IMG/VR virus record: IMGVR_UViG_2823949316_000001 | Coordinates: 69,531-95,542 of that record | DNA length: 26,012 nucleotides | Direction: 5' to 3' (one strand) | Source: a virus | Taxonomy: Duplodnaviria > Heunggongvirae > Uroviricota > Caudoviricetes | In this document: piece by piece, positions 1,693 through 26,012 of the stretch | Numbering within the stretch: position 1 is the first letter of the stretch | How the letters are laid out: each line of letters starts with the position of its first letter | Position numbers and translations under genes: made by a program | The notes under the pieces: generated by a model | Databases searched by the model: none | What the model was told of the DNA's origin: nothing | What the model saw: the letters and a program-made list of their open reading frames with translations, nothing else

Positions 1693-1698
1693 GCCCAC

Positions 1699-2607
1699 AT
1701 GGCAATTTCAATCGTCCAGCCACTCCCCGCCGGCAACGCTATCCGGCTCTTTATCGCCCCGCCTCCGGGTGCGAGATACTGGCTCGTCCTGCGTTCCGCG
1801 ATGGATGATTTCGACAGTATGCAGCCCCTGGCAGACGCGCAGCGGGTCGACCACGACGGCCTGCCGTATATGGTCTGGGATGACGGCGCCATGGTTCCGA
1901 TCGCCTACGAAGGCGACGAGCGCGTGGTGATCGATGCCAAGCACCTGCAGAACGAGGTCATGGCGTTCTACCGCCCGTACTACCGGATGCCTGACGGCAG
2001 CTGGCAGGCTGCTCAGACCGCCACCGGCACGCCCAAGGCCCTGTTCGAGGAGAGCACGACCGACGTGCAATCCTTCATCCGTGATCGGCTTGAAGCCGGC
2101 CTGAAGGTCGAATGCGAGCGCGAGAACCTGGTGACCGAGCACGGCTACGTGCAGGTCTACACCGCCCCGCCAGCGCTCGAACAGAACCTGCGTTTCCCTC
2201 TGGTGACGATCACCCTGGAGAACGAGTGCCCGGTCGAGCGCGGCATCGGTGAGGACGTGGCCGGCGACGCGTTCGACGCAGTCGGTGACGACTGGTTCGA
2301 CTCCGAGGGCTGGCTGGCGCAGGTGCAGTTATCCCTCGTCGGCTGGTCGCTCAACAGCGACGAGCGCATCGAGCTGCGCAAGGCCATGCGCCGGGTGATC
2401 CTGGCCAATCTGCCGATCTTCGAATCCGTGGGCATGCTCACCCCGCAAGTCAGTTTTCAGGACGTTGACGCCCTCAGCGGCGAGTTCAACGCCAACATGT
2501 ACCAGGTCATGGGCTCCTTCTCGTGCCTGGCCCCAGTCCGCGTCGGTCGCCGTTACGGCGAGGGCGAGGTCGTCAACGATGTCATCACCAGGAGCACCAA
2601 TGGCTAA
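1699..2607 (+). CDS. Putative tail terminator/completion protein (302 aa)
   Basis: Good codon usage and position directly before the sheath region; C-terminal half has the alpha/beta character of tail terminators. No SD before the ATG. Confidence 0.55.
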   Translation: MAISIVQPLPAGNAIRLFIAPPPGARYWLVLRSAMDDFDSMQPLADAQRVDHDGLPYMVWDDGAMVPIAYEGDERVVIDAKHLQNEVMAFYRPYYRMPDGSWQAAQTATGTPKALFEESTTDVQSFIRDRLEAGLKVECERENLVTEHGYVQVYTAPPALEQNLRFPLVTITLENECPVERGIGEDVAGDAFDAVGDDWFDSEGWLAQVQLSLVGWSLNSDERIELRKAMRRVILANLPIFESVGMLTPQVSFQDVDALSGEFNANMYQVMGSFSCLAPVRVGRRYGEGEVVNDVITRSTNG

Positions 2608-11057: not shown

Positions 11058-11073
11058 GTCGTGACCTCATACT
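11058..11073 (+). promoter_or_regulatory. Late-promoter-like motif, copy 4 (GTCGTGAC-CT-CATACT; 6 nt later ATG at 11080)
   Basis: GTCGTGAC CT CATACT GGTGGC ATG fills the 23-bp intergenic gap. Confidence 0.75.
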
Positions 11074-11079
11074 GGTGGC

Positions 11080-12264
11080 ATGCTACCAACAGCCCCGCCT
11101 ACCGATCAGCGTGCCGGCATCCGCCCGATAGCCTTCGTGCTCAACAACGGCGGAAGCCTCGGCTCGCCCGTATCCCTGAAGATCAGGCCAGAGGATCTGC
11201 AGCGCAATGAGCCGTCCCGGATCGCTGTAACCCAGACGCTTGGCCGCACCACCCAGGGGTGGGCCGATAACTTCGGGGCTGGCCTGCCTTCGTGCACGAT
11301 CAGCGGCCACACCGGGTGGCGGAAGGGCGGCTCGAGCGGTGAGGATGGCGCAGAGCATTTCTTGACCCTGCACGACACGGTCATGCCGGCCTATCACGCA
11401 GCCAAGCAGGCCGCGATCGAGATCGGCACCGATCCGGCCTCCGTCAAGCTCCTGTTCGTCGACATGCTCGATGGGTTCTGCTGGAACGTGGCGCCCATGA
11501 GCTTCACGCTGCGCCGCTCGCGTAACCGGCCGCTCCTCTTCCAGTACAACATCGCCCTGCAGGCCATTTCGACAGACATCGATAACCCTCTGCGCATCCT
11601 GCCGTTCCTGGGGAACATTCCGGCCGGCCTTGATGCCCTCGGCGGCGTGCTCGGCCGGCTCTGGGACTTCGCCCTGAGCGTGCAGGGCTGGGTCAGCTCG
11701 GCGCTCGGCTTCGTCGACAAGGCCTTGGCCCCGATCGCTGCCACGGTGAAGACTTTCGTCGACATCTCGGCTTCCGTGCTTGGAGCAGTCAGCACGGCGG
11801 TCGGGGCCGTCCGCAACGGGGTGAGTGGCGTCGCCAACCGCCTGATCGGCATTGCCGGCGACATGGCCCAGGTCGGGATCAATGTGTTCCGGACGATTTC
11901 GTCCATATCCAATCTGCCGGCCCATCTTCGCGCTGCGATATCCAGGGTCGGTGCCGCCTACAACGAGGCGCTGTGCATCCTGCGCAACTCGCTGCGCCCG
12001 CGCAAGACCTACCAGGAGTACGATGGGCTGTACGGCGCTTCGAACTGTTCCTCGACCACGGGCGGCCGTTCGATGAGCGCTTACACCAACATGAACGCTT
12101 TCGCGCTCATGCAGGAGGAAAAGCTGCCGATCGAACTGAACAGTGCGGCGCTTTCCAGCGTGTCCAGCGTGAATCGTAGTGACCCCGTTCTGGCGCCTAT
12201 CCCACTGGCAGAGATCGGTCGGCACCTCGACAACATCAACGCCGGCACCGTGGTGAACCAATGA
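11080..12264 (+). CDS. Putative tail tube initiator / baseplate protein (394 aa)
   Basis: N-terminal tube-like fold (LKIRPEDLQRNEPSRIAVTQTLG...DNFGAGLPSCTISGHTG) then a helical region; position after the spike. Confidence 0.6.
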   Translation: MLPTAPPTDQRAGIRPIAFVLNNGGSLGSPVSLKIRPEDLQRNEPSRIAVTQTLGRTTQGWADNFGAGLPSCTISGHTGWRKGGSSGEDGAEHFLTLHDTVMPAYHAAKQAAIEIGTDPASVKLLFVDMLDGFCWNVAPMSFTLRRSRNRPLLFQYNIALQAISTDIDNPLRILPFLGNIPAGLDALGGVLGRLWDFALSVQGWVSSALGFVDKALAPIAATVKTFVDISASVLGAVSTAVGAVRNGVSGVANRLIGIAGDMAQVGINVFRTISSISNLPAHLRAAISRVGAAYNEALCILRNSLRPRKTYQEYDGLYGASNCSSTTGGRSMSAYTNMNAFALMQEEKLPIELNSAALSSVSSVNRSDPVLAPIPLAEIGRHLDNINAGTVVNQ

Positions 12265-12992: not shown

Positions 12993-15040
12993 GCGACACC
13001 CCCAACGAACGCATCGAGGCATCGCTGGTGCGTCTTGAGTCCGACACCAGCACGCTGAATAACATCGTCCATGGGCCGGAGGGCGAGACAGTGCCGACTG
13101 AATCAGGCGAGGTGCCTACCGTGCACGAGCTGTTCAGGCAGATCGGCGAGCACGTCGGCGCGGTGACGACCGCTGCAGCTGCATCGGCAGAGCAGGCGCG
13201 TGTGAGTGCTGTCAGTGCGGCAGAGAGCGCCAACGTGGCGGCCAACCAAGTCAACGTAGCCACGGCTGCGGCAGAAGCTGCCGAACGGAGCGCTCAGGCC
13301 GCAGAGCAATCTGTGGCGGCTGCAACTGGCCAAGTAACTGCTGCTGCCGAGTCGGCCCAGCAGGCGCGAGCTTCCGCCAGCACGGCCGCACAGGTCGCCA
13401 ACCAGGCGCAGCAGGCGGCGCAAAATGCTAGCCAGAAAGCTGATACTGCGGGGCAGGCTGCGGCTACGGCTGATCAGAAGGCGACAGCTGCCGGCCAGGC
13501 CGCTGCCGCCGCCAACCAGAAGGCGAGCAGTGTGGTTGCCAATGATGGTGCTGGAATGGTGCCATTCGATAGCAGCATCAGTTACCCAGCCGGGAGCGTT
13601 GGCAAGGCATTGGCTGCAGCAACTCAGGCTAGTAGCTCAGTTGACAGGATTGTTTCATCGCTTGGCGAGTTGAAAAGTTTGACTGGTGCCAGAGCCGCCA
13701 TTCTGAACGGGGTCGTCTATAACTTGGACGAAGAAGACGACTCTTCTGCGGAATCATTTCCGTACCTAGTCGTTTCCAACGATGGGAAAAGATGGAAGTG
13801 GGAAGTTCCAAGTGTAATAACGGCTAGAATGTTCGGCGCCGTTCCGGGGATTTCTGCGGACAATACAGCTGCTATTCAGAAGGCGATTGATTACTGTCTA
13901 AGTTTCACGCCTGCAAAATCGCTCGTCATTTCGGAACGGTATCGTATCGCCGCCACGCTTATGGTTGACAACCCGGTCGATGCGTCTGCGGGTGAATTCT
14001 ACTTAATCGGCGTGAACGGCGGCGGGTTCTACGTGAATACGGCGATCACGCTGTTCTCAAGTCGTCTCCCATATGGATCTTTCGGCGCTCTGAAGTCACC
14101 TTCCTCCGAGTACCTGCACTTCGACAAAATAAGGTTTGAGGCTTCTGACCGTGCGTTGAATGCGTATGTCGTGAGTGACAAATTTCTCCGCCTGACCTTT
14201 GAGAGCTGCCAATGGCGCAATATAAAGTGCTTGCAGTCAGCAGACTATATTCAGAGCTGGGCCTTTACCGGCAAGAACCTGATGCGCCGTCATCAAGGCA
14301 TATTCCTTAATGCGACTTACGGCTACGACGTCAACATTCAGGACGTAAATTTCGAGATCAGCGGAAGCGGCTTCATTTTCGATCAATTTGTTAACGTCAT
14401 TCGCATGAGTGGGCTCTACGAAAACTCCGATGGCCCCTTCTTCCGTGGCGGTGCAAATACCGGCACTTTCGAAAAACTTTATTTCGAGATGAATGGCTCT
14501 CCAGAGCTAGACATTACGGGTGGCGCAACCATCCGAATTTCCGCTCACTTCCATCTCGATCAGTCTCAGGTGATCCCTGCAAATGATCACTGGCCTATTG
14601 TTCTTGGCCAATATGTTGATGCAGTGACCATCGATGGCTGCACAAGCAACGGAAACATTTGTAATAATTCTGCTGCACCCGCGTTTTCTGTTCGTCGCGG
14701 AACAAACACTGCCGGCCATCTTGAGTTCCGTACCAATCCGCTTGTCGATACCACTATGGCGGCGGCTGGCACGAACCAAGCAACGGCAACGCCTATCACG
14801 AGAGAATATTGTCTCGTGCTGTCCGGCGGAGCGGGTAATGGGGTTCGCTTACCAAGCGCCGACACCAAGGCTAGATACAGCCCCATTACTGTCCAGAATC
14901 GAACCGCTTCAACGATTACGGTCTACCCAGCGCCAAATGAGCGTATCCTCGGGAATGGCACTAACGCCGGTATGCCTTTGACTTCCGGGGCAACGGCTCG
15001 CTTTGTCTGGCAAAACGGAGACGCCTGGGCAAACTTCTAG
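12989..15040 (+). CDS. Tailspike / depolymerase-like receptor-binding protein (683 aa)
   Basis: N-terminal anchor (IVHGPEGETVPTESGEVPTV), Ala/Gln-rich coiled coil, pectate-lyase-like beta-helix start motif (ITARMFGAVPGISADNTAAIQKAID, from about 13817), C-terminal beta-sandwich-like domain; lower GC. Confidence 0.82.
   Translation: MSDTPNERIEASLVRLESDTSTLNNIVHGPEGETVPTESGEVPTVHELFRQIGEHVGAVTTAAAASAEQARVSAVSAAESANVAANQVNVATAAAEAAERSAQAAEQSVAAATGQVTAAAESAQQARASASTAAQVANQAQQAAQNASQKADTAGQAAATADQKATAAGQAAAAANQKASSVVANDGAGMVPFDSSISYPAGSVGKALAAATQASSSVDRIVSSLGELKSLTGARAAILNGVVYNLDEEDDSSAESFPYLVVSNDGKRWKWEVPSVITARMFGAVPGISADNTAAIQKAIDYCLSFTPAKSLVISERYRIAATLMVDNPVDASAGEFYLIGVNGGGFYVNTAITLFSSRLPYGSFGALKSPSSEYLHFDKIRFEASDRALNAYVVSDKFLRLTFESCQWRNIKCLQSADYIQSWAFTGKNLMRRHQGIFLNATYGYDVNIQDVNFEISGSGFIFDQFVNVIRMSGLYENSDGPFFRGGANTGTFEKLYFEMNGSPELDITGGATIRISAHFHLDQSQVIPANDHWPIVLGQYVDAVTIDGCTSNGNICNNSAAPAFSVRRGTNTAGHLEFRTNPLVDTTMAAAGTNQATATPITREYCLVLSGGAGNGVRLPSADTKARYSPITVQNRTASTITVYPAPNERILGNGTNAGMPLTSGATARFVWQNGDAWANF
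13433..13525 (+). repeat. Imperfect 42-bp tandem repeat (QKAxxAGQAAAxAx) in the tailspike stalk
   Basis: CAGAARGC recurs at 13433, 13475 and 13517. Confidence 0.8.
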
Positions 15041-15044
15041 AGAT

Positions 15045-15080
15045 CGCCTGACTACTTGCGCAATGCCCAAGTACCGGGCG
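15045..15080. other. Imperfect inverted repeat after the tailspike stop
   Basis: CGCCTG..TACTTG / CAAGTA..CGGGCG; no clear U-tract, so the role is uncertain. Confidence 0.4.
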
Positions 15081-15089
15081 GACGTTTGA

Positions 15090-15105
15090 GTCGTGACCCC
15101 ATACT
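15090..15105 (+). promoter_or_regulatory. Late-promoter-like motif, copy 5 (GTCGTGAC-CC-CATACT)
   Basis: GTCGTGAC CC CATACT GCCCGC A, upstream of the baseplate J gene. Confidence 0.75.
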
Positions 15106-15134
15106 GCCCGCATCACTAGATGCGGGCATTTTAC

Positions 15135-16232
15135 GTGGCTTTCCAGATCAAGGACTTCGCGTCCATCACCGCCGCCATCATCAACCACATGCGTGGCGTT
15201 ACCTCGAAGGTGACCGACTACCAGCCAGGCTCGGTGGCCCGCACCATCGTGGAAGGCCCTGCGGTCGAGATGGAAGAGCTGTACCTGCAGATGTTCCTTG
15301 GTCTGCGCGAGGCGATCCCGGTGGCGACATTCCAGTCGTTCGGGTTTGACACTCTGCCAGCAGCCTACGCACACGGCTTTGTCAGCGTATCGGCTGCGAC
15401 TCCACCGGCGGCAGATATCGTCGTGCCAGTCGGAACCAGCTTCACATCTACGGACGGGCGCGAATACCTGAGCTCCGTCGCCGTGACCTGGGCGGCAGGC
15501 CAGTCCATGGTGATCGTCCCTGTCATCGCTGCTGCGGCCGGCCTGGCCTACAATATCGCAGCTGGCCTGATCACCAGCTCCGCCTTCTTTGGTGCCGGCT
15601 ACACCATCAGCAATCAGGCCATCACCAATGGCACCGACGCAGAGACCGATGATGAGCGGTCGGCCCGCTTCGCCGAATTCGTCGCATCGCTCAGCCGCGG
15701 CACCGTCCTGTCCTGCCTCTACGCTGCAAAACAGGCCGCCGCGCGTGACGAGACTGGCAACATCTATGAGTACGTCACCAGATCCGGTATTCGGGAAACC
15801 GCAGGTTACGTCCGTATCTACCTTTACTCCTCGGTCGGTGTCCCGTCCGAAGGCCTGCTGGCCGATGGGCAGCGCCTGATCGATGGGCAGGCAGACCCGG
15901 AAACCGGCACCCCGCTGGTGGCGGGATTTCGTGCTGGCGGGATCCGCGTCGACGTCCTCCCTATGGTTGAGAGATCGATCCCCATGGGCATTGGGGTACG
16001 CATGCGGTCTGGGTATGCCCTGACGGCTGCGGTGCAGCAGACGATCTCTGACTCCTACGCCAACGCCATCCGCAACGTGCAGCCTGGTGACACGCTGCTG
16101 ATCGACAACCTGCGAGCGATCTTGATCGGGACGCCAAACGTGGCGGAGCTGGCATTATCGGCGACCTCGAACATCACCTGCGAGCAGAATGAGGCGTTGG
16201 TGCCAGGCGCGCTGACGATCTACGCCATATGA
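15135..16232 (+). CDS. Baseplate J-like wedge protein (about 365 aa; GTG 15135 preferred, ATG 15120 possible)
   Basis: KDFASITAAII...TDYQPGSVARTIVE; NGTDAETDDERSARF motifs typical of the baseplate J family. Confidence 0.9.
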   Translation: MAFQIKDFASITAAIINHMRGVTSKVTDYQPGSVARTIVEGPAVEMEELYLQMFLGLREAIPVATFQSFGFDTLPAAYAHGFVSVSAATPPAADIVVPVGTSFTSTDGREYLSSVAVTWAAGQSMVIVPVIAAAAGLAYNIAAGLITSSAFFGAGYTISNQAITNGTDAETDDERSARFAEFVASLSRGTVLSCLYAAKQAAARDETGNIYEYVTRSGIRETAGYVRIYLYSSVGVPSEGLLADGQRLIDGQADPETGTPLVAGFRAGGIRVDVLPMVERSIPMGIGVRMRSGYALTAAVQQTISDSYANAIRNVQPGDTLLIDNLRAILIGTPNVAELALSATSNITCEQNEALVPGALTIYAI

Positions 16233-17434
16233 ACATGTTGCAGAAGCTCCTCCGCCACCCGCACAGCGCTGTATTCGATAAGCAGCCAGACGCAGTTCGG
16301 GCGTTTCGACTGCGACACCCTGATGGCGCGTCGTGGAGCGTGTCCAATGACGTGTTGATCGCTGCGCATCCATCTCGCAGTTTCACCTACGACCTCTCGA
16401 CCTACACGATCGGTTCGCTGATCCTGCGGCTGAAAGCGGACGGCTTTGCCGTCACAGAGATGTCCTCCTACCTGTTCGGCCTGTCGGCCCGGGTGCTCAT
16501 TACGGGCAGTGGCTCTCAGAGCGTGTCCAACGGCGACCAGCTCATGGGTTTCCGCTCTCTGCTATGGTCGATCTATTCGGCCTTCACGCCCGAATTACGC
16601 GAGGCCAGGCGCCAGGTCGGCGAGGCCCTGAAACAAATGATCATCCCCACAGCCGAGGGCGAGTGGCTGGACTACTGGGGTAGCCTTTACGGCGTTCCTC
16701 GTGACGACGGAGAGCCGGACAGTCGCTACCAGGGGCGCATACCGGCCGAGGCCTTCCGGCTTCGCGTCAACAAGTACGCGATCGAGAAGGCTGTTCTCGA
16801 GCTGACCGGGAAGAAGGTCGTCATCCGGGAAACCTGGGAAAACATGTTCCGCCTGGATGTGTCTCGCCTATCTGGTTCAGACCACCTGGTCGATGATGCT
16901 AGGTGGCGATACGGCTATATCCAGCCAGTGGCCAATGAGCTCTTCGACTGGGGCGAAGTGCTTCGGGTGATCGATCGCAACCGCGCCGCCGGGGTGATCA
17001 TTTTGCCCCCGCAGGCCGAGATCGACGAGTTCATTGACGGGAGGCTCGACGGTACGGTGACGTTCGGTATCACCGAGCTCTTCGGCGCCTTGGTGCGCAC
17101 CCTTGACGAGGCGCGCCTGGACTGGATGCAGCTCGGTAACGCCCAGCAGATCCGCAACTGGCGAGTAAAGACGGAGAGCGAGGGAGGAATCCTCGTAGCC
17201 GGAGGTGTCGCCGGCATCGTGGCCATGGTCATCTTGGACGAGCTGTTCCCCATCTATGTTCACGGCGATCTGCCTGCAGCTCAAGAGCCCCCCGGCATTG
17301 CCGAAGAGTTCCGTCTACCCACCAACATCAACCACTGGTCAGCAGGCAGGACATGGTCGCGCGAGACATGGCGTGCCCGCGGCTCCGCATCGCCGCGCAG
17401 GTCTGCCGGCAGGATGGATACAGAGACCGCGTGA
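16229..17434 (+). CDS. Baseplate wedge protein, gpI-like (401 aa)
   Basis: ATGA overlap with J; TAEGEWLDYWGSLYGVPRDDGEPDSRYQGRI motif characteristic of the partner of baseplate J. Confidence 0.75.
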   Translation: MNMLQKLLRHPHSAVFDKQPDAVRAFRLRHPDGASWSVSNDVLIAAHPSRSFTYDLSTYTIGSLILRLKADGFAVTEMSSYLFGLSARVLITGSGSQSVSNGDQLMGFRSLLWSIYSAFTPELREARRQVGEALKQMIIPTAEGEWLDYWGSLYGVPRDDGEPDSRYQGRIPAEAFRLRVNKYAIEKAVLELTGKKVVIRETWENMFRLDVSRLSGSDHLVDDARWRYGYIQPVANELFDWGEVLRVIDRNRAAGVIILPPQAEIDEFIDGRLDGTVTFGITELFGALVRTLDEARLDWMQLGNAQQIRNWRVKTESEGGILVAGGVAGIVAMVILDELFPIYVHGDLPAAQEPPGIAEEFRLPTNINHWSAGRTWSRETWRARGSASPRRSAGRMDTETA

Positions 17435-17438
17435 TCCC

Positions 17439-17454
17439 GTCGTGACGCGACAAT
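17439..17454 (+). promoter_or_regulatory. Late-promoter-like motif, copy 6 (GTCGTGAC-GC-GACAAT)
   Basis: GTCGTGAC GC GACAAT GGTGGC A, 4 bp after the upstream stop. Confidence 0.75.
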
Positions 17455-17482
17455 GGTGGCAACACGAATTTACGAGGGTTCA

Positions 17483-17968
17483 ATGGTGGCAATTCTCACC
17501 GAACAGGGTCGCGTCGCTGTCGCCGCCTACATGTCAGAACAGCCGCTGCATATGGCCTGGGGCAATGGCAGTGTTGCATGGGATACGACCCCTGTGCAGG
17601 CTGGCCCGAACGAAACCAGCCTCGTTGCCGAGGTCGGTCGCCTGAAGGCAACTGCCATCCAGTACGCGGTGCCCAACGCAAGCGGCACCATCGACCTCCC
17701 CGAAGGTCGTTTCAACGTCAGTGCGACGCCGACCAAATACCTGCTGCTGACCTTCGAGTTCGCCTACAACCACGCAATCGGCGAGGATATCCGCGAGCTG
17801 GGTGTGTTCATCGGCACGACCCTCGCCACTGGCGTGCCTGCTGGCACCATCTACCTGACCCCTGATCAGATCGACAACCCTGGTCGCCTTGTGGTCGTTG
17901 AGCGCGTGGCTCGGTTCACTCGTCAGTCGAACACCAAGCAGAAATTCACCTACGTGATCGAGTTCTGA
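17483..17968 (+). CDS. Baseplate/fibre-attachment protein (161 aa)
   Basis: SD GAGGG at 17474-17478 before ATG 17483. LHMAWGNG...NETSLVAEVG...IRELGVF pattern recalled from the small gene preceding DUF4815-type genes in large myoviruses. Confidence 0.65.
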   Translation: MVAILTEQGRVAVAAYMSEQPLHMAWGNGSVAWDTTPVQAGPNETSLVAEVGRLKATAIQYAVPNASGTIDLPEGRFNVSATPTKYLLLTFEFAYNHAIGEDIRELGVFIGTTLATGVPAGTIYLTPDQIDNPGRLVVVERVARFTRQSNTKQKFTYVIEF

Positions 17969-17972
17969 TTCC

Positions 17973-19937
17973 ATGGCTGATATCGAGCTGGACAACTATT
18001 ACAACCGCTACAACCCGGCCAAACAGTACGAAGAGCACCTGTTTCGTGCGGGCAACGTGCTGCAGTCGGCTGAGCTGAACGAGATTCAGGCCTGCTCGGC
18101 GCAGCGCCACCGGATGATGGGCGACGCGCTCTTCAAGGACGGCGACATCGTGCGCGATGCTCGCGTGATCGTGGACAGCGTCACCGGTGCTGTGATCGCC
18201 GAGTCTGGAGCCATCTACCTGGATGGCCAGGTGCGCGGTGTGCCGCCGGCAAACTTTACGATCCCGCTGACGGGAACTGTGGTCATCGGTATCTATCTGC
18301 TTGAGTCGATCGTCACCGAACAGGAAGACCCTGAGCTCGCCGAGCCAGCCACGGACGTCCGCGCCTATGGAGAGCCGGGCGCAGCCCGCCTCAAGGTCGT
18401 GCCGATCTGGGGCATCCAGGGAGAGCGCGATGACGCAGAGTTCTACCCGATCTACTACGTCGACGATGGCCAGCTCCGCGCCAAGGAGGCGCCGCCTGTT
18501 CTGGATGCCGTGAGCCAGGCAATCGCCCGCTACGACATCGACAGCTCTGGCTCGAACTACGTGGTCGAGGGCATGCTGGTGCGACGCCTGTCCGATGAAG
18601 GCACGAACCAGGTGTACACCGTGGATGACGGCCGGGCGCGCGTGAACGGCTTCGGCGTCAACCTGACCAACTCGCGGCGCCTGGTGTATCAGACCGAACC
18701 AGTCATCAAATTGATCGACAGCGAGCCGACCACGTCCACGTCTGCAACGCTGCAGCACGTAACCTTTGCCCGCCCGCCGGCGCGCGATGTCGTTCAGGTG
18801 CGCATCACCGAGCAGTCGTCCGCTACGATGACGCACGCCAGCTTCTCTGGCGGTGCCGACCCGCTGCCTGACACGTCTGTCGTGCAGATCATGAGTGTCA
18901 CCCAGGGCGGCACCACCTTTGTGGAGGGCGCCGACTATGTGCTGACCGGGCAGACCGTAGACTGGTCGCCGGCTGGCAATGAGCCCGCCCCGGGCTCGAC
19001 CTACCAGGTCGTATACCGACACATTTCGACTGCCCAGCCGCAGAATCTGACCGCCAAAGGCTTTGACGTGGCCGGCGCCGTGGTCGGCAGCCTGATCCTG
19101 ACCACATACAACTGCATGCTGCCCCGGATCGATCGCCTGTGCATCGATGACAGCGGCCAGTTCGTGTGGGTGCAGGGCGTGTCGACCGACTACAACCCGG
19201 TGCGGCCGTCCGTCCCGTCCACGATGATCGCCCTGGCCCAGGTTCAGCAGAACTGGGACGATACCACCGTCGTCAACAATGATGGTGTGCGCACGGTCTC
19301 CATGCGCGAGATCGAAACCATGTTCACCCGCATGGATCAACTGACGGATCTCGTGGCGCAGCAGCTGCTGATCTCGGATGTGTCTACCCGCGAGGCGGCG
19401 GCCAAGAAGGGGATCTTCTCCGACCCATTCCTGAACGATAACCACCGTGACATCGGTGTCGCGCAGACCGCCGCGATCAGCAGCGGCGTACTCACCCTGC
19501 CGATTATCCCTGCCGTTCGCTCTGTCGGCAGCGACATCGAGACGCCGCAGAAGTGCGCCTTCGAGATCGAGGTGGTCATCGACCAGGCTGAGCGCACCGG
19601 TACCATGAAGGTCAACCCCTACATGGCGTTCGACGTGCCTGCAGCGCCAGTTACGCTGAATCCTTCCGTGGATCGGTGGACTGAGACCAGCACGCAGTGG
19701 CTCAGCGACGTCACGCAGAAGTTCATTGCCTACGACCCGGGCTATCACTACGCCCAGGGGAGCGGCCGAGGCCCGACCTATGTGGTGACCAGCCAGAACA
19801 CCAATTTGGTCTCGAGCAAATCGACGGCGATCGCTTACCTGCGACAGATCCCGATCAACTTCACTATCACCGGCTTTGGCCCGGGCGAAACGCTCACCAG
19901 CGTCACGTTCGATGGCATCCCTGTGACTCCGGTTTAA
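17973..19937 (+). CDS. DUF4815-like tail/baseplate adsorption protein, N-terminal part (654 aa)
   Basis: YYNRYNPAKQYEEHLFRAGNVLQSAELNEIQ start and GIFSDPFLND motif resemble the DUF4815 family (recalled, not searched). Confidence 0.72.
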   Translation: MADIELDNYYNRYNPAKQYEEHLFRAGNVLQSAELNEIQACSAQRHRMMGDALFKDGDIVRDARVIVDSVTGAVIAESGAIYLDGQVRGVPPANFTIPLTGTVVIGIYLLESIVTEQEDPELAEPATDVRAYGEPGAARLKVVPIWGIQGERDDAEFYPIYYVDDGQLRAKEAPPVLDAVSQAIARYDIDSSGSNYVVEGMLVRRLSDEGTNQVYTVDDGRARVNGFGVNLTNSRRLVYQTEPVIKLIDSEPTTSTSATLQHVTFARPPARDVVQVRITEQSSATMTHASFSGGADPLPDTSVVQIMSVTQGGTTFVEGADYVLTGQTVDWSPAGNEPAPGSTYQVVYRHISTAQPQNLTAKGFDVAGAVVGSLILTTYNCMLPRIDRLCIDDSGQFVWVQGVSTDYNPVRPSVPSTMIALAQVQQNWDDTTVVNNDGVRTVSMREIETMFTRMDQLTDLVAQQLLISDVSTREAAAKKGIFSDPFLNDNHRDIGVAQTAAISSGVLTLPIIPAVRSVGSDIETPQKCAFEIEVVIDQAERTGTMKVNPYMAFDVPAAPVTLNPSVDRWTETSTQWLSDVTQKFIAYDPGYHYAQGSGRGPTYVVTSQNTNLVSSKSTAIAYLRQIPINFTITGFGPGETLTSVTFDGIPVTPV

Positions 19938-19946
19938 GGAACCTTC

Positions 19947-21155
19947 ATGGCTCTCACTGCAAATCCACAAGGTGTAGTCACCGGGCAATTCACTATCCCG
20001 GCCAACGTATCTGCTGGCTCGAAGCGGGTTGAATTCAAGGGCTCCGGCGGCAGCCACGCCAGTGCCTCGTTCTTCGGTCAGGGCACTTTCGTTGAGAACG
20101 TGATGCAGAAGGTGGTCAACTCGACCACCCGCTATTACGACCCGCTCGCCCAAACCTTCTATCTCGACAGCCTGCGCCAGGTCGCCGGGCTCGACCTCTA
20201 CGTCGAAGCGAAGGGTACGACGCCGATCGTCGTGCATATCCGCGAGACCTCGAACGGCTATCCGGCCCAGACCATCTTGGCAGAGGCCAGTCTTCATCCC
20301 TCCGGCATCACCGCCGGTGCGTGGAACCGCTGGCTGTTCCAGACCCCGGTAACCCTGCTGCCGAATGTCGAATACTGCATCGTCGTCATGTGTGATGACG
20401 CAGTGTCCTCGATTGGGATCGCCGAGCTTGGCAAATGGTCGCTTTCGAGTCAGCGCTGGGTCACCAGCCAGGCGTCCAACGTTGGTGTGCTCTTCTCCTC
20501 GTCGAACAACTCGACATGGACGGCGCACCAAGACCGTGACATGACCTTCCGTTTGCTGGCGGCCAAGTACACCCAGGCCCAGCGTGTCGTTGATCTTGGT
20601 ACCGTAGCTGCCAGCGGGCATACCGACGCACTCGTGCTGTCCGCGCCTGACACCCCGACCAGCGAGACCACCTTCAGTATCGACCTGGAGCTGCCTGACG
20701 GCACCGTGATCACCACGGGTGACAGCCAGAAGGTGACGTTCATTCCCGCCGTGACCGGCAATATTGGCGTGAAAGCCCGGCTGTCCGCGAGCGAGCATGT
20801 GTCGACTACGGTATTCCCGGGCACGGTGCTCGCGCTGGGCACCGTCCAAACCACGGCTGACTATGTGTCGAGGGCGTTCCCAGCTGGCGCGCCTGATAGC
20901 GATGTCATGGTGATCTTCGACGCCTACCTGCCTTCTGGCTCGACCGTTGCGGTTTCTTTGTCCGGCACCGGGGCTGGCGACACATGGGAGACGATCCCCC
21001 AGGACGGCGTTGCGCTTCCCATTGGCGACGGGCTGTATGAGTATCGATTCAAGAAGGTCGACTTCAACAAGGCCAACTGCAAGATCAAGCTGGTTCTCAA
21101 TGGCACCAACGCCGCCCGGCCGATCGTCCGTAACCTGCGTGCGAGTGTGACCTGA
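19947..21155 (+). CDS. DUF4815-like protein, C-terminal part (402 aa)
   Basis: Same frame as the preceding ORF; DPLAQTF...GLDLYV and HQDRDMTFRL motifs; SD TAAGGA. Confidence 0.7.
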   Translation: MALTANPQGVVTGQFTIPANVSAGSKRVEFKGSGGSHASASFFGQGTFVENVMQKVVNSTTRYYDPLAQTFYLDSLRQVAGLDLYVEAKGTTPIVVHIRETSNGYPAQTILAEASLHPSGITAGAWNRWLFQTPVTLLPNVEYCIVVMCDDAVSSIGIAELGKWSLSSQRWVTSQASNVGVLFSSSNNSTWTAHQDRDMTFRLLAAKYTQAQRVVDLGTVAASGHTDALVLSAPDTPTSETTFSIDLELPDGTVITTGDSQKVTFIPAVTGNIGVKARLSASEHVSTTVFPGTVLALGTVQTTADYVSRAFPAGAPDSDVMVIFDAYLPSGSTVAVSLSGTGAGDTWETIPQDGVALPIGDGLYEYRFKKVDFNKANCKIKLVLNGTNAARPIVRNLRASVT

Positions 21156-21571
21156 TGATCGACGATCGCACTCCTGCGCTACAGCTTCCGCTGCCGCACG
21201 CCGACAACTACCTGGACGACGACGTCGCCAGGTTGCGGGAGGCCTTCACCTCGCTGGACGAGTTGCTGGCGTCCGACGACCCGGCCCTGTCGAGCATTCA
21301 GGAGCTGGTCGATGCGATCAAGGAAAATGCATCGAACATCATGACCCTGCGGGAGGATGCTGAGGAGGTGCAGACGCTGGCCGCTGACCAGACCGTGGTC
21401 AACCTCAATAGTCTGACCGATACGACTGGCTGTACCGTCTTCATTGAAGGCGTTCGCCTGAACAAGAACCAGTGGACGCGGGATCCTGCAGTAATGACCC
21501 GCTTCACTCTCACCCAGAGTTATTCGGCGCCAATGGTCATTACCATCGTGCGTCGTCAGGGAGGCGTGTGA
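21155..21571 (+). CDS. Tail fibre anchor/adaptor-like protein (138 aa)
   Basis: TGATG coupling; N-terminal MIDDRTPALQLPLPHADNYLDDDVARLREAF resembles fibre N-terminal anchors; coiled-coil middle. Confidence 0.55.
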   Translation: MIDDRTPALQLPLPHADNYLDDDVARLREAFTSLDELLASDDPALSSIQELVDAIKENASNIMTLREDAEEVQTLAADQTVVNLNSLTDTTGCTVFIEGVRLNKNQWTRDPAVMTRFTLTQSYSAPMVITIVRRQGGV

Positions 21572-22260
21572 GCAAACTACTCGACTTTTGGGGCGACATG
21601 ACTGGTGTCGTCCTCGACTATGCCCTTCCAACGCCGCCGAGTTCGGCCTGGGCTATGTGTTACGGGCAGGCACTGGTAGCGGGCGTACCTGAGACCGCGG
21701 CCCTTCGGAAAAAGCTCATCGACGCCGGCTTCCCGCACGGTAAGAATGGCAACAACGACCCGCTCGTGCCCGATGGCCGTGGCCGTGTGTTCGCTGGCTG
21801 GGACAGCATGGGCGGCACAGCTGCTGGGCGCTTAACGACAGCCGGCGGCGGGGTTAATGGGGCTGCCCTGGGGGCCGTTGGTGGCGCGCAAGCGCACACA
21901 CTGACAGCTGCGCAAATGCCGCAGCACAACCATGCCGTCACTGATCCTGGGCACAGTCATAGCGTCTATGACCCAACCCACACGCACAGCGTATATGACC
22001 CTGGGCACACCCACTCGATCACAACTACCGACACGGCTGATACGACGACCGGGTCACCAGGTAACGCGCAGGGCACAGCGAACCGAATTTTCAACGCCAA
22101 CGTCACTGCAAGCGCTACCGGCGTAAGCATCTACGGCGCCGCCACCGGCGTCAGTATCTATGCGTCCGGCACCGGGATCAGCACGCAAAACAACGGCTCC
22201 GGCGCCGCTCATCCGATCACCCAGCCGACCGGCGTGATGAACAAGATCATCAAACTCTGA
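21568..22260 (+). CDS. Tail fibre with tail-collar domain and His-x-His needle tip (230 aa)
   Basis: GTGA overlap with SD GGAGG; collar motifs (WAMCYGQ; VPDGRGRVFAGWD; GGAQAHTLTAAQMPQHNH; QPTGVMNKIIK). Confidence 0.85.
   Translation: MSKLLDFWGDMTGVVLDYALPTPPSSAWAMCYGQALVAGVPETAALRKKLIDAGFPHGKNGNNDPLVPDGRGRVFAGWDSMGGTAAGRLTTAGGGVNGAALGAVGGAQAHTLTAAQMPQHNHAVTDPGHSHSVYDPTHTHSVYDPGHTHSITTTDTADTTTGSPGNAQGTANRIFNANVTASATGVSIYGAATGVSIYASGTGISTQNNGSGAAHPITQPTGVMNKIIKL
21925..22191 (+). repeat. 27-bp period repeats: DPxHxHSVY x3 outbound and xATGVSIYx x3 inbound
   Basis: 21943-22023 and 22111-22191, separated by a non-repetitive loop. Confidence 0.85.
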
Positions 22261-22268
22261 CCGCCTGT

Positions 22269-22284
22269 GTCGTGACAGCAAACT
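22269..22284 (+). promoter_or_regulatory. Late-promoter-like motif, copy 7 (GTCGTGAC-AG-CAAACT), upstream of the lysis cassette
   Basis: GTCGTGAC AG CAAACT ACCCCA A. Confidence 0.72.
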
Positions 22285-22313
22285 ACCCCAAGACGCAAAT
22301 CTTGGGGTTTTTT
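22285..22313 (+). terminator. Terminator-like hairpin that also pairs the holin SD
   Basis: Perfect 9-bp stem ACCCCAAGA / TCTTGGGGT, loop CGCAAA, T-run to 22313, ATG at 22314. Confidence 0.75.
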
Positions 22314-22526
22314 ATGCAATTTATCGACGACTGGAAACGCCAGTTTCCGCGCCTCTGGAGCGTAAGGCTTTCGCTCTTGGCTGCGCTCGTGTCCAGCGTC
22401 GAGGCTGGGTTCACTTACTGGGCAACGGGCAAGGCTCCTGTCCTTGTTGTGGCGGCCGCCGTTATCTCGCTCGGCGCATCCGTGGCCCGCATCGTCGCTC
22501 AGGTAAAGGTGAGCGACAATGGCTAA
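22314..22526 (+). CDS. Holin-like membrane protein (70 aa)
   Basis: MQFIDDWKRQFPRLWSVRL start, two hydrophobic segments, directly upstream of and overlapping the endolysin. Confidence 0.75.
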   Translation: MQFIDDWKRQFPRLWSVRLSLLAALVSSVEAGFTYWATGKAPVLVVAAAVISLGASVARIVAQVKVSDNG

Positions 22527-23016
22527 AGTCGGTTCCCGCACCCTGCAAGGCACTGTCGGCGCCGGCGCCGCTGCTCTCCTCCTCGCCTACGTGCCGATGT
22601 TCGAAGGCACTATCCTGCGGGGTCACCTCGATCCGATCGGCATCGTCACGGCCTGCACGGGTCACACCAAGACCGCCGTGCTGGGCCGGCCGTACAGTGC
22701 TGAGCAGTGCAAGGCGCTGCTGGATCAGGATCTGGTCGAGCACGCCCAGGGCGTCCTGCGCTGCACGCCTTCACTGGAAGGCAAGACCTACCAGCTGGCC
22801 GCCGCCAGCAGCTTCGCCTTCAACGTTGGCGTCGGCGCTTACTGCAAGAGCTCGATCGCCCGTGCGTTCAACGCTGGCGACGCGATCACGGCCTGCAAGC
22901 GATTCAACGAGAATGCCGCCGGGCGCCCGCAGTGGGTGTCGGCCGGCGGCAAGGTTCTCCCCGGACTCGTCAAACGCCGCGCTATCGAGCGGCAAATGTG
23001 CGAGGGCAAGCTGTGA
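22519..23016 (+). CDS. SAR endolysin, GH24 phage lysozyme (165 aa)
   Basis: Weakly hydrophobic Ala/Gly-rich N-terminus; catalytic triad E-x8-D-x5-T (FEGTILRGHLDPIGIVT); FAFNVG and GLVKRRAIER motifs. Confidence 0.92.
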   Translation: MAKVGSRTLQGTVGAGAAALLLAYVPMFEGTILRGHLDPIGIVTACTGHTKTAVLGRPYSAEQCKALLDQDLVEHAQGVLRCTPSLEGKTYQLAAASSFAFNVGVGAYCKSSIARAFNAGDAITACKRFNENAAGRPQWVSAGGKVLPGLVKRRAIERQMCEGKL

Positions 23017-23053
23017 TGCCCATGCACCCACCAATCAACCGAGACCAGTAGTA

Positions 23054-23257
23054 ATGGCATCCGATGAGAAAGAGTTTCGGGAGATGGGTACCCAGATCGT
23101 CCGCCTTCAGGGGCAGGTCGAGCACATCCAGGAGCGGATGAAGAGTTTTGTCACGCAGGCCGAGTTCATCCCGGTGCGGATCATTGCATACGGACTGACT
23201 GGCATGACGCTGACCTCTGTCTTCGCCGCTCTGCTAGCGAAGGTCATCATCAAATGA
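23054..23257 (+). CDS. Small membrane protein, coiled coil plus C-terminal TM (67 aa)
   Basis: MASDEKEFREMGTQIVRLQGQVEHIQERMK...IIAYGLTGMTLTSVFAALLAKVIIK; ATGA overlap with the next gene. Confidence 0.7.
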   Translation: MASDEKEFREMGTQIVRLQGQVEHIQERMKSFVTQAEFIPVRIIAYGLTGMTLTSVFAALLAKVIIK

Positions 23258-23703
23258 GACGACAAATCCCCGCCAACATCGCTATCCCACTCATGGTGCT
23301 GTTCGCACTCTTCATCATGGTCAGCACCTGGTGGTGGGTCGTTCTCTCCGGCAGCAATCCCTACACCGTGACCAACGTCGGCGTGGTCAATGTCCGCGGC
23401 GAAGCGCAGGAGCAGTTCCGTCCGGGCGAGGTGGTCGGCATCATCCGCAATATCTGCACGAGCGAGAGCATCGGCACATCGTTCAATCCCGGACTGCGCA
23501 ATGACATCGGCCTGTTATTCCCCCTGCCAGGCGGCGTCATCCATAGCGAGGCCGGGTGCCGCCAGGGCAAGTACGGCTTCATCATGCCGAACCTGCCGCC
23601 CGGCACCTACACCTACGTCAATACAGTCCTGTACCAGAGCAACCTGGTAGGCCGTGACGAGCACGCGATCTTCCCGCCGCTAACCCTTGAGGTTCTGCCA
23701 TGA
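23254..23703 (+). CDS. Membrane-anchored protein with predicted periplasmic beta domain and two Cys (149 aa)
   Basis: N-terminal TM (IAIPLMVLFALFIMVSTWWWVVL) then a soluble beta-rich domain; ATGA-coupled on both sides. Confidence 0.75.
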   Translation: MRRQIPANIAIPLMVLFALFIMVSTWWWVVLSGSNPYTVTNVGVVNVRGEAQEQFRPGEVVGIIRNICTSESIGTSFNPGLRNDIGLLFPLPGGVIHSEAGCRQGKYGFIMPNLPPGTYTYVNTVLYQSNLVGRDEHAIFPPLTLEVLP

Positions 23704-24077
23704 TCTCCCTGCGAACCGCCAGCCTGGCGGTTTTAGCTGCCCTCCTGCTCGCCGGCGCTGCCGGTGGTGGTGCCGTCGTTGCTACGTGGAAGGCCAATGC
23801 CGGCCACGGCCAGGCGCTGCAGGACAAAGACGCTACCATCCTGCGCCTGGAGGGCCAGGTGTCCGAGCTCAAGCTGGCGATCGCCGAGCAGAACAAGGGC
23901 GTGGCGGTGGCCGAGGCCCAGGCCAAGGCAATCGACGACATGCAGGCCCAGGCCCAGCGGCACCTGACCGAGATGGCGACCTTCAGCCAGGGCCGCATGG
24001 ACAAGCTGGCCAAACTGGCTGAGCAGTCGACGAGCTGCGGTGAGGTGCTGCGCGGTAACTGGGAGATGCGGCGATGA
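23700..24077 (+). CDS. i-spanin (Rz-like, 125 aa)
   Basis: N-terminal TM followed by a long coiled coil and one C-terminal Cys, in the lysis cassette. Confidence 0.8.
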   Translation: MISLRTASLAVLAALLLAGAAGGGAVVATWKANAGHGQALQDKDATILRLEGQVSELKLAIAEQNKGVAVAEAQAKAIDDMQAQAQRHLTEMATFSQGRMDKLAKLAEQSTSCGEVLRGNWEMRR

Positions 24078-24412
24078 GCGAGCTGAAGAAATTACTGGCC
24101 CAGTGCGCGATCGCCGTGGCGGCCTGCCTGGGCACCCTGGTGATTGCCGGGTGCGCGGCTCCCGTGCAGGCGCCTGCGCCAGAAGTGGTGGTGGTCGAGA
24201 AGAAGGTGAAGGATCCCTGCATCAGCGAGGCGCCGGCCAGGCCGGCGTATGCAACCGGGAAGGGCGACTATCCGGTCGACGCAAAGGGGCAGCCGGATGA
24301 TGCCAAGGCGGCGGCCATCCTGGGCCAGGACTTCGAGCTCGCCGATCAGTACGGCAAGCGGTGGGAGGCGGCTGCCGCCGGCTGCGTGAAGGTGCCGGCG
24401 GCGAACCTCTAA
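24074..24412 (+). CDS. o-spanin (Rz1-like lipoprotein, 112 aa), separated architecture
   Basis: Lipobox LVIAGC; Pro-rich linker; additional Cys residues; follows the i-spanin with an ATGA overlap. Confidence 0.8.
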   Translation: MSELKKLLAQCAIAVAACLGTLVIAGCAAPVQAPAPEVVVVEKKVKDPCISEAPARPAYATGKGDYPVDAKGQPDDAKAAAILGQDFELADQYGKRWEAAAAGCVKVPAANL

Positions 24413-24636
24413 CGGGCGTAGCGCTTGCCGACCAGCTCGGCTTCCGTCTTGCAGGCGACGCACACGTCGAACCCATGCCCGCGGCGCGCTGCGGGCATTT
24501 CCGCATCGCAGTTCACGCACTCGGCCGGGCCGTAGCCGGCGTCGCCGGGCTGGTACTTCACCGGCGCCGGCCGGCTCTTGTTATTGCGTTCCCACTCCTG
24601 CAGCTCAATCTCCTGAGCGCGGTCTTCAGCTGACAT
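24409..24636 (-). CDS. TraR/DksA-family C4 zinc-finger protein (75 aa)
   Basis: CVNC-x16-CVAC; N-terminal EDRAQE helix; SD GGGGAG. Confidence 0.88.
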   Translation of the reverse strand: MSAEDRAQEIELQEWERNNKSRPAPVKYQPGDAGYGPAECVNCDAEMPAARRGHGFDVCVACKTEAELVGKRYAR

Positions 24637-24656
24637 CTTGATCTCCCCAAGGGCAT

Positions 24657-24684
24657 AAAAATGGCGCCGGTGATGTCCGGCGCC
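24657..24684 (-). terminator. Intrinsic terminator-like hairpin between integrase and TraR-like gene
   Basis: Minus strand GGCGCCGG ACATCA CCGGCGCC ATTTTT (perfect 8-bp stem). Confidence 0.75.
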
Positions 24685-24692
24685 TTATGGTT

Positions 24693-24708
24693 ATTGTGGC
24701 ATCACGCC
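24693..24708 (-). promoter_or_regulatory. Late-promoter-like motif, copy 8 (GGCGTGAT-GC-CACAAT), overlapping the integrase stop codon
   Basis: Minus strand GGCGTGAT GC CACAAT AACCAT A; 16/17 identical to copy 3. Confidence 0.68.
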
Positions 24709-26012
24709 ACGACTTTTATCATCGGCTCGCCCTGGGCTGGCGGCGTGCCACCCGCCAGGACGATCCCCATCCAGGCCGACCACTTGGCCATGGCCGTGCG
24801 CATCTGCGGCAGGTAATCCGCCCGGTCGTAGTTTTTCGAACCCGTGTCGTTCTTGGCGTGCTGCTGGATCAGGTCACGGGTGAAACGGTCGACGCCGGCG
24901 TCGTGGCTGCGGCTCTTCCATGTGCGGCGGATGTCCCGGGTCTGGAAGTGGGGCAGGTTCACGTCAGGACGCTCGAGCCAGCGGCCGATCGCCTGGTTGA
25001 TGCTGCGGTGGCAGATCAGATCGTCCTGGCTGCCGGTGCGGGCTGGGAACAGCGGGCCGTCGCCGTGCTTGTCGATCAGCAGCTGCAGGGTCGGGATGAC
25101 CACCGCCGGCAGCGGCACCGTGTGGGCGTGCTTCCCGCCCTTGGTCTTGCTCGCCGGCATCTTCCACACCTGGTTGGCCAGGTCGATCTCGGCGCCCTCG
25201 ATGCGCAGGGTCTCCTGCACCCGCTGGCCGCAGCCGATCAGCAGCCGGACGCAGGCGCCGGTCTCCAGGCCGAAGCCGCCATCGTCGTCCAGGGTGGCCA
25301 GCCACAGGGCGCGGATCTCGTCGGCGCTCAGGTTGCGGTCGCGGGTCTTGATCGCGCCTTCATCCTTGGCCACGTCCGCCGCCGGGTTCCGGGTAATGCC
25401 CCAGTCGATGCGCTGATCGACCGGAACGGTGTAGTCGTTGGCCGACGTGATGGCCCAGGCGAAGGCCGAAGCGATGTAGGAACGGGCCTTGTCGGCGGCG
25501 CCACGTTTCCCGCGCTGGTAGAATTTGGACACATGGTTGACCACGTCGAGCGGGGCGACTTCCGCCGCCGCGCGGGTGCGTCCCAGGTCGTCAGCGGCCG
25601 ATGGCACACGCTTCGACTTGAGCAGCATCCGCTCGACTTCCGGGGCGCTGGCCTGGCCTGATGCCTTCAGCTGGTCGACGTAACCCTGGAACATGCGCTC
25701 GACGGTCGCCTGGTTGACCTCGGCCTTGGCGGGTCGCAGCTCGGCGGCCGGATCCAGGCCCTCGGCCACCTGGGCGAAAATCTTGCGGGCCAGCTCGCGG
25801 GCCTTCTCCGGCGGCATGTCGCTGCAGCGCGCCAGGGTCATCTTGCGCTGGGTCTTGGCCGCGCTCTTCACCCGGTACCGGACGACATAGGTCTTGCGAC
25901 CGCTGGCCTGGATGCGCACGCCGAAGCCCTCGAGCTCGCTGTCCCAGTGCCACGAATCGCCGCTGGCCGGGGCCTTCAAATTATCCACAGCCGTCTTCGT
26001 CAGTTTTGCCAT
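24702..26012 (-). CDS. int: Tyrosine integrase with N-terminal arm-DNA-binding domain (436 aa)
   Basis: MAKLTKTAVDNLK...WDSELEGFGVRIQASGRKTYVVRYR arm-binding start; catalytic R (GQRVQE), K (SKTKGG), RDIRR, QHA and Y (KNYDRADY). Confidence 0.93.
   Translation of the reverse strand: MAKLTKTAVDNLKAPASGDSWHWDSELEGFGVRIQASGRKTYVVRYRVKSAAKTQRKMTLARCSDMPPEKARELARKIFAQVAEGLDPAAELRPAKAEVNQATVERMFQGYVDQLKASGQASAPEVERMLLKSKRVPSAADDLGRTRAAAEVAPLDVVNHVSKFYQRGKRGAADKARSYIASAFAWAITSANDYTVPVDQRIDWGITRNPAADVAKDEGAIKTRDRNLSADEIRALWLATLDDDGGFGLETGACVRLLIGCGQRVQETLRIEGAEIDLANQVWKMPASKTKGGKHAHTVPLPAVVIPTLQLLIDKHGDGPLFPARTGSQDDLICHRSINQAIGRWLERPDVNLPHFQTRDIRRTWKSRSHDAGVDRFTRDLIQQHAKNDTGSKNYDRADYLPQMRTAMAKWSAWMGIVLAGGTPPAQGEPMIKVVA

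Follow-up and report, generated by a model that had tools for sequence, protein, structure and literature searches.

The window analysed here, a 26,012-nucleotide stretch of DNA that corresponds to C1:748749-774760 of a 4.95-Mb bacterial genome, covers the end of a prophage where the tail, baseplate, fibre and lysis genes are located. Its genes encode a sheath protein, a tube initiator, baseplate J, a DUF4815 protein, a tail fibre, a holin and an endolysin, and a tyrosine integrase is located at 24702-26012 on the opposite strand. The prophage is a roughly 90-kb Dolphis-like temperate myovirus. Judged by the DUF4815 protein, its closest named relatives are the Pseudomonas phages Dolphis and Jeremy (59.5% at the amino acid level), followed by Aeromonas ST4, Yersinia fHe-Yen8-01, Morganella Mecenats66 and IMG/VR contigs of 86-96 kb. 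A megablast search of positions 20000-24000 against phages found no nucleotide-level relatives and DNA-level matches in 60 related genomes did not exceed chance, so the relatives were identified through their proteins. An Rfam search of 14500-24800 at E <= 1 returned no family. The boundary between the tail-fibre gene and the lysis genes holds the following features:

21472-22260, + strand: tail-fibre gene from the ORF list (PHROG 8469/8763 tail fibre, E 1e-40)
22269-22284, + strand: putative late-promoter motif, consisting of the octamer GTCGTGAC (22269-22276), AGC and the -10-like pentamer AAACT (22280-22284)
22285-22293, + strand: 5' arm of a hairpin, ACCCCAAGA, which pairs with TCTTGGGGT; candidate anti-SD strand
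22291, + strand: predicted transcription start A, 7 nt after the pentamer T, placed by the spacing at leaderless copies
22300-22308, + strand: 3' arm of the hairpin, TCTTGGGGT, which contains the SD-like GGGGU (22304-22308)
22308-22313, + strand: U-run, T6, which begins at the last stem T and doubles as SD-to-AUG spacer
22314-22526, + strand: holin-like gene of 70 aa with two hydrophobic segments, DUF7940 (Pfam PF25612; PHROG 1356 holin)
22519-23016, + strand: GH24 endolysin gene (PF00959, E 7e-29; PHROG 7)

The tail-fibre gene, whose true start may lie downstream of 21472 and whose stop codon TGA occupies 22258-22260, is the last gene of an upstream late operon that begins at the promoter copy at 17439. 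The start of the holin gene is fixed at ATG 22314 by the match to DUF7940, which aligns from the second residue of the protein onwards (residues 2-63 against positions 1-63 of the PF25612 model, E 2.4e-10). The endolysin gene overlaps the holin stop codon and has an SD of its own, AAGGTGAG.

The gap between the tail-fibre and holin genes measures 53 bp and is fully used, by 8 nt, the 16-nt motif, the 24-nt hairpin and 5 T. The hairpin arms enclose the loop CGCAAA (22294-22299), and six of the nine bases of the 5' arm lie upstream of the predicted +1. The only SD-like element of the holin gene, GGGG at 22304-22307, sits inside the hairpin, 6 nt before ATG 22314. With its 9-bp stem (5 G-C), 6-nt loop and U-tract directly after the stem, the structure is built like an intrinsic terminator, and it appears in a terminator scan as 9 pairs and a loop of 6, followed by TTTTTTATG. 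An earlier note on this DNA had described a hairpin of this type around the holin's sole SD-like element; its coordinates for the octamer, the arms, the GGGG and the ATG are all exact in the sequence. The 3' tail of the host 16S rRNA, GGATCACCTCCTTTCT (contig C15), contains ACCUC, which is complementary to GGGGU, and GGGG-type SDs are also used at other genes of the phage, at positions 178 and 8539. GGGGU is only a moderate SD. A terminator role on the minus strand was considered and rejected, as AGTTTGCTGT, the tail in the reverse direction, makes a poor U-run and the locus has no convergent gene.

The motif was searched for as GTCGTGAY-N3-A.A.T (that is, GTCGTGAY-N3-ANANT), with the reversed pattern as control. 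The 4.95-Mb genome contains 11 matches, all 11 of them on the + strand and all at C1:708372-771017, within 63 kb of prophage sequence; the reversed pattern has 0 matches in the same genome, which puts the motif well outside chance expectation. The octamer GTCGTGAC occurs five times in the window, every time on the + strand, just before a gene start and followed by N3 and A.A.T. The same phage specificity and strand bias is seen in Dolphis, with 8 matches, and in four IMG/VR records, with 6, 5, 6 and 5, all of them (30 in total) on the late-gene strand, and no match was found on the opposite strand or with the controls in these 5 phage records. The motif is retained across genomes of 44 to 63% G+C, and the family consensus is GTCGTGAY-g-n-C-A-n-A-m-T, at -22 to -7 relative to +1. 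The holin copy (22269-22284) matches exactly, is intergenic, lies on the late-gene strand directly before a gene, and is identical over its 16 nt to a leaderless copy at C1:743114. Judged from these sequence features, the phage has a late-promoter element of its own in 11 copies, and GTCGTGAC-AGC-AAACT is one of them.

This element appears to be a previously undescribed, -10-proximal type of promoter. Literature searches with the motif string and with wording for a promoter within a terminator returned nothing relevant. A -35 box is absent, and a sigma-70 consensus scan at the holin promoter gave no match. Searches of the whole genome with Sigma70_r2 and Sigma70_r4_2 found no match within the prophage, and the ten ORFs upstream of the first late promoter had Pfam and PHROG matches only to families without an assigned function. 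A different reading of the promoter, with GTGACA (22272-22277) as -35 and GCAAAT (22295-22300) as -10, was rejected because the GCAAAT hexamer is not conserved in the other copies, whereas the A.A.T pentamer is conserved at a fixed 3-nt spacing. It has also been considered that the motif might be no promoter at all but an RNA-processing or protein-binding site, beside which the hairpin would be an independent terminator. The Mecenats66 genome paper, which offers no promoter analysis, leaves room for such a site, but the -11 A and the -7 T are conserved, a start codon stands exactly 7 nt beyond the T and no SD precedes it, which is the signature of a leaderless -10 element, and the motif sites are strictly intergenic, on a single strand and ahead of late operons. 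This explanation is thus regarded as extremely improbable.

The start point of the RNA is predicted from the other copies of the motif, four of which in the window are relevant here:

1677-1701, + strand: leaderless promoter copy, with ATG 1699 located 6 nt after the pentamer
11058-11082, + strand: leaderless promoter copy before a tail-tube-initiator-like gene, with ATG 11080
15090-15137, + strand: twin module before the baseplate-J gene, with octamer (15090-15097), pentamer ATACT (15101-15105), hairpin (15105-15128), TTTT and GTG 15135
17439-17485, + strand: leadered copy driving the operon that runs into the holin hairpin, with SD GAGGG, real start ATG 17483 and no overlapping hairpin

At 7 of the 11 prophage copies an ATG lies exactly 6 nt past the motif, a leaderless geometry, and both ATG 1699 and ATG 11080 are the first possible start of their ORF and lack an SD. 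Across 72 non-redundant sites, the start codon of a long ORF is found at motif+22 in 16 and one base later in 4 more (20/72), and these leaderless starts match independent annotation twice, at Dolphis gp117 and at terminase gp1. Position -1 is C in 15 of the 16 leaderless sites, while 39 of the 52 leadered sites have a purine at +1, an A in 31 of them. An A at -11, a T at -7 and ATG at +1 match the spacing expected where a leaderless mRNA is transcribed from a -10 element. Promoters with only a -10 element that produce leaderless mRNAs are represented by lambda PRM/cI and by the TANNNT motif of Deinococcus-Thermus. The sister copies of the motif similarly place ATG exactly at the predicted +1; the holin copy differs in being leadered (23 nt), and the octamer at -22 to -15 is an additional element.

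The fixed motif-to-ATG spacing at the leaderless copies places the predicted +1 of the holin copy at A22291, the position that had been proposed before, and the identical 16-mer at C1:743114 agrees with it. The start could differ if the polymerase does not follow sigma-70-type spacing. Any RNA started at about 22289 or later would lack the CCCC run, so that the terminator would be gone too. By contrast, if transcripts began at or before the base of the hairpin, every holin mRNA would carry it, and it would either stabilise the 5' end or constitutively dampen or attenuate holin synthesis. In keeping with such a start, no sigma-family gene was found in the prophage search, but with a start right after the pentamer the leaderless-type genes would have a leader of 6 nt that lacks an SD, and no purine preference is seen at motif+16. 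Furthermore, the fixed 6-nt spacing, the C at -1 and the A at +1 agree with transcription beginning on the ATG, and an RNA that carried the whole terminator 6 nt from its 5' end would cut short its own synthesis. An upstream start is consequently viewed as distinctly unlikely.

Folding predictions indicate that the two kinds of RNA would behave differently. The hairpin alone has a folding energy of -13.8 kcal/mol, and in its 81-nt context, which scores z = -2.93 against dinucleotide shuffles, it is both the MFE and the centroid structure. The predicted energy is -14.7 kcal/mol for the read-through RNA versus -1.8 for the RNA from 22291, which upholds the earlier suggestion that the locally started RNA is unable to form the hairpin, and none of 500 dinucleotide shuffles matches the folding-energy loss of the real segment on starting at 22291. 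In the read-through RNA the computed probability that the SD is unpaired is 0.004-0.005 over seven 3' ends; in silico, the longer RNA therefore shows SD masking of the T4 e type. In RNA from 22291 this probability ranges from 0.04 to 0.47, depending on the 3' end. The low value of 0.04 is attributable to possible long-range pairing, as the model suggests that in this RNA the SD may be partly paired with 22354-22360.

Taken as a whole, the 53-bp gap is probably a composite control module in which a late promoter of its own, a terminator and an SD mask insulate the lysis cassette. The late-promoter element would start RNA at A22291 by the fixed geometry of the family. RNA from the upstream operon would hold both arms and U6 and would mostly terminate at about 22309-22313, and in any RNA that escaped termination the holin SD (GGGGU) would be locked in the stem. 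RNA from 22291, without six of the nine bases of the 5' arm, would neither terminate nor mask the SD, and would present a 23-nt, U-rich, open leader. The net effect would be insulation, with the lysis cassette expressed from its own promoter alone and at the strength of that promoter; the input kept out would be read-through from the late operon or, in the lysogen, stray transcription.

The structural part of this proposal was examined in relatives at 15 holin-upstream sites from about 12 diverged lineages, whose sequences are not all mutually independent (Yersinia fHe-Yen8-01, Aeromonas ST4, Morganella Mecenats66 and, from IMG/VR, L061/63/64, L078/94, L091, L092/95/97, L093, L099, L100 and L101). 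The arm sequences diverge (ACCCCAAGA, ACCCTCATA, GCCCTCATAC, GCCCTTAAT, GCACCTATC, GCCTCTG, CCATTCAG, CCGCTTAGT, CTGCTTTGT and others), while the geometry is the same. The 5' arm begins at the first post-pentamer base, or at most 5 bases before it, in 14 of the 15 sites, and reaches back into the pentamer at nine. An SD-like purine block lies inside the 3' arm at 14 sites, and this arm ends 1-6 nt before the ATG at all sites except those of L093 and L100. Read-through forms have predicted energies of -10.5 to -27.7 kcal/mol and forms from +1 of 0 to -3.4, so that starting at motif+22 costs 8.7-24.3 kcal/mol at 15/15 sites; at every one of them no more than 3.6% of dinucleotide shuffles reach the observed energy difference. 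An alignment of eight sequences has 91% of its cells paired, compared with 24-57% in control registers in which the partner is slid by 1-3 columns. Six of the nine pairs show changes on both sides, and each stem position has 2-4 pair types among the relatives. This recurrence of the hairpin geometry with compensatory changes, as judged by sequence comparison, strongly supports the structural logic of the module and is the strongest evidence for it.

The comparison also bears on a simpler explanation, according to which an ordinary terminator is followed by an ordinary restart promoter. The hairpin would then merely end or stabilise the tail-fibre mRNA, and a tight gap and G-rich stems would produce both the overlap and the location of the SD in the 3' arm as by-products. 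The complete occupation of the 53 bp is compatible with this explanation, as is the finding that terminators elsewhere in the prophage lie simply upstream of promoters. At L100, moreover, a U-run is present and the SD lies outside the hairpin. On the other hand, the U-run after the hairpin is absent in 4 of the 12 lineages (ST4, L093, L099 and L101), in which the hairpin keeps the same register and the SD remains in the 3' arm; termination cannot be the conserved function there. The near-constant start of the 5' arm relative to the pentamer also speaks against coincidence of two ordinary elements, and the same design is repeated, again without U-runs, at the baseplate sites of L065, L068 and L086:4910. 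The simpler explanation is therefore considered unlikely, although it retains some weight. The lineages without U-runs, together with L100, suggest that the terminator and anti-SD roles of the composite module are separable and that neither is invariant. Two further sites lack the arrangement: at the Dolphis lysis promoter (L010:12306) a hairpin lies wholly downstream of +1 (p 0.8), and in a Nitrosomonas prophage (L011:13443) the terminator is upstream of the promoter. These exceptions indicate that the module is useful, not obligatory.

The holin of these relatives belongs to PHROG 8226 and is non-homologous to the DUF7940 holin of the prophage, whose own relatives in IMG/VR are found in ~40-kb phages of other types that lack the motif and thus say nothing about the hairpin. 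The presence of non-homologous holins behind the same module indicates that the lysis cassette was exchanged while the module stayed. An endolysin search in metagenome contigs returned no motif-bearing loci. It could be argued from the exchange that motif and hairpin are mainly a recombination joint, similar to a PeSL linker, for the swapping of lysis and tail-fibre cassettes, with regulation secondary; flanking genes vary among the relatives, and PeSL cassettes in T4-type phages behave in this manner (PMC2839356). However, the 16 nt alone are conserved and the hairpin sequences differ by lineage, which fits structural selection better than recombination homology. Such a joint would in any case be compatible with the regulatory reading, and as the main role of the locus it is judged very unlikely.

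Within the prophage, the proposed insulating module has a twin before the baseplate-J gene. The twin hairpin (10 bp, -18.9 kcal/mol) begins on the last T of the pentamer, and its predicted +1, 15112, falls inside the 5' arm; the orthologous site in Dolphis (L010:4030) is laid out in the same way, with an ATG that aligns with GTG 15135. Across the family, a hairpin spanning the predicted +1 (p <= 0.05) is present at 58% of 52 leadered sites versus 15% of 20 leaderless sites. The prophage terminators are located 26-48 nt upstream of the motif at three leaderless promoters, and at the two leadered modules (15090 and 22269) they begin 15-16 nt after the motif start. This pattern of terminators, hairpins and leaderless starts fits the idea that translation of the first genes behind late promoters may be meant solely for locally started RNA. 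It may tentatively be extended to the whole late programme of Dolphis-like ~90-kb temperate myoviruses, although the extension has somewhat less than an even chance of being correct. A single rule would then apply, in which the first gene is translatable only from the RNA of its own promoter, implemented either as a leaderless ATG at +1 or as an anti-SD hairpin with its 5' arm at -6 to +3, optionally with a terminator; the 16-nt element, which has no -35, would be read by a factor that is not recognisably sigma-like. If this is true, the lysis cassette exemplifies a link, present throughout the genome, between where a transcript starts and whether it is translated.

The closest known parallel is the lysozyme gene e of phage T4, for which McPheeters et al. 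in 1986 reportedly described a translation-initiation hairpin. Four T4 genes, e, soc, 49 and I-TevI, have their SD or AUG sequestered in the longer transcripts, and RNA from late promoters just upstream of them is missing the 5' strand (PMC3014915), so that gene e had been correctly cited as a precedent for the holin locus. The holin locus is predicted to share with gene e the SD of a lysis gene within a helix in read-in RNA and a late promoter in the DNA of the 5' strand, so that locally started RNA would lack this strand and be translated. In contrast to T4, the hairpin here is also built as a terminator, with a U6 tail, the gene encodes a holin instead of a lysozyme, the putative 16-nt promoter motif is another one, and the phage family is unrelated.

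A further difference concerns the origin of the read-in. In T4 it comes from early promoters, whereas here it would come from the same late promoter class, since the copy at 17439 carries the same motif and no other promoter-like site was found on the + strand from 17439 to 22269. The T4-style argument from early versus late timing consequently does not transfer, and the module would separate transcripts by origin, not by time. Insulating the level of expression, or shielding the cassette from stray lysogen transcription, thus appears to be a more defensible purpose than early/late timing; read-in from farther upstream or in the lysogen is possible. The earlier note had presented the locus as a lysis switch that makes lysis depend on the octamer regulator. 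Its structural logic is borne out by the sequence and the comparison, but the notion of a switch is overstated, and a dependence of lysis on that regulator adds little when the promoter of the upstream operon carries the same motif.

The compact overlap of promoter and terminator also has a counterpart in the PeSL cassettes of the T4-type phages RB49/phi1 (Arbiol et al. 2010), in which a promoter overlaps a terminator stem-loop followed by an SD and start codon, and for which both activities have been shown with reporters (PMC2839356). Like the module described here, PeSLs are compact intergenic cassettes, and the overlap is sometimes located at or after the -10; they isolate the downstream gene from upstream transcription and sit at gene-swap joints, as the prophage module may also do. 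The overlap followed by SD and start codon is likewise repeated within the prophage, at 15090 and 22269, and is matched by the overlapping hairpins at more than half of the leadered sites of the family (the 58% given above). PeSLs differ in having sigma-70-type early promoters (-35, -10 and AT-rich upstream sequence) and in flanking accessory ORFans, whereas the prophage module has a late-type, -10-proximal motif with no -35 box and a conserved block at -22 to -7, and precedes core late and lysis genes.

Masking according to transcript origin is not restricted to phages. In the fold-back inhibition of IS10/IS50 (Davis, Simons and Kleckner 1985), transcripts from outside are said to mask the ribosome site, and transcripts from the element's own promoter to start downstream of the masking segment; that system concerns a transposase gene, has no terminator function and operates on another scale. 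The principle is thus already known from T4 gene e, PeSL and IS10, and is not a new concept. Specific to the present case are the combination of terminator and SD mask, the undescribed -10-proximal motif and the family-wide pattern that is complementary to leaderless starts.

The value of these observations would lie in their breadth and in annotation, not in a new concept. If the proposed mechanism is true, a temperate phage shields its lethal lysis cassette from stray and read-through transcription with 48 bases that serve as promoter, terminator and translational lock. A promoter motif and predicted transcription starts would also become available for a phage family without transcription data, whose hosts are Pseudomonas, Aeromonas, Yersinia, Morganella and E. 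coli-type bacteria. Several gene starts would be corrected, including that of baseplate J to GTG 15135 and that of the baseplate-wedge gene to ATG 17483, and several late genes would be read as leaderless.

Copies of GTCGTGAY-N3-ANANT, the putative late-promoter element of Dolphis-like phages, lie close to the starts of the following genes, with positions given in the window or, where marked C1, in the bacterial contig that carries the prophage.

Window 1677-1701 and 11058-11082; C1:723012, 733712, 739649 and 743114: leaderless motif copies, recognized by motif-to-ATG spacing
Window 15090-15137: second promoter-in-terminator module, a twin of the holin one, before baseplate J
Window 17439-17485: motif copy and start of a baseplate-wedge gene (PF25691)

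At each of the leaderless copies, the gap between the motif and the ATG is exactly 6 nt, no SD precedes the ATG, and this ATG is the earliest start available to its ORF. The 6-nt spacing, the lack of an SD and the earliest-start ATG recur at the orthologous sites in Pseudomonas phage Dolphis and in IMG/VR relatives. The late genes behind these copies are predicted to be leaderless, with the start codon at the predicted +1. In Dolphis (L010/L053), the annotated start of gp25 (23748) is probably too far downstream, since the motif copy at 23666-23690 of that record places a leaderless ATG at 23688, which aligns with ATG 11080 of the window.

Two baseplate gene starts are also affected. The ATG chosen for baseplate J by the ORF caller (15120) falls within the hairpin of the 15090-15137 module, and alignment with Dolphis gp28 indicates GTG 15135 as the true start. 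For the baseplate-wedge gene, the start is most likely ATG 17483, with the SD GAGGG, rather than ATG 17453, which falls within the -10-like element of the 17439 motif copy.

The endolysin N-terminus (22519-22610; MAKVGSRTLQGTVGAGAAALLLAYVP...) is Gly/Ala-rich and in sequence resembles a signal-anchor-release (SAR) segment; if it is one, the two-TM DUF7940 protein would be its pinholin-type partner. The lysis cassette appears to have been acquired through modular exchange, because DUF7940 holin homologues in other phage types (L107-L120, IMG/VR contigs of ~40 kb) occupy the second position of a gene pair, immediately downstream of a gene for another membrane protein, and lack the GTCGTGAY motif.

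Downstream of the endolysin, 238 nt (23016-23254) without an assigned gene precede the cassette's next ORF. A weak Rz-like match lies at 23700-24077, and no spanin pair was identified. A perfect 8-bp GC hairpin (24663-24684) separates the cassette from the integrase gene and is probably the integrase terminator, as it has a good U-run on the minus strand only.

The sole motif copy found opposite the late-gene strand in any relative lies at position 66 of the related record L025 (minus strand), followed by a terminator-like hairpin entirely downstream of the predicted +1.
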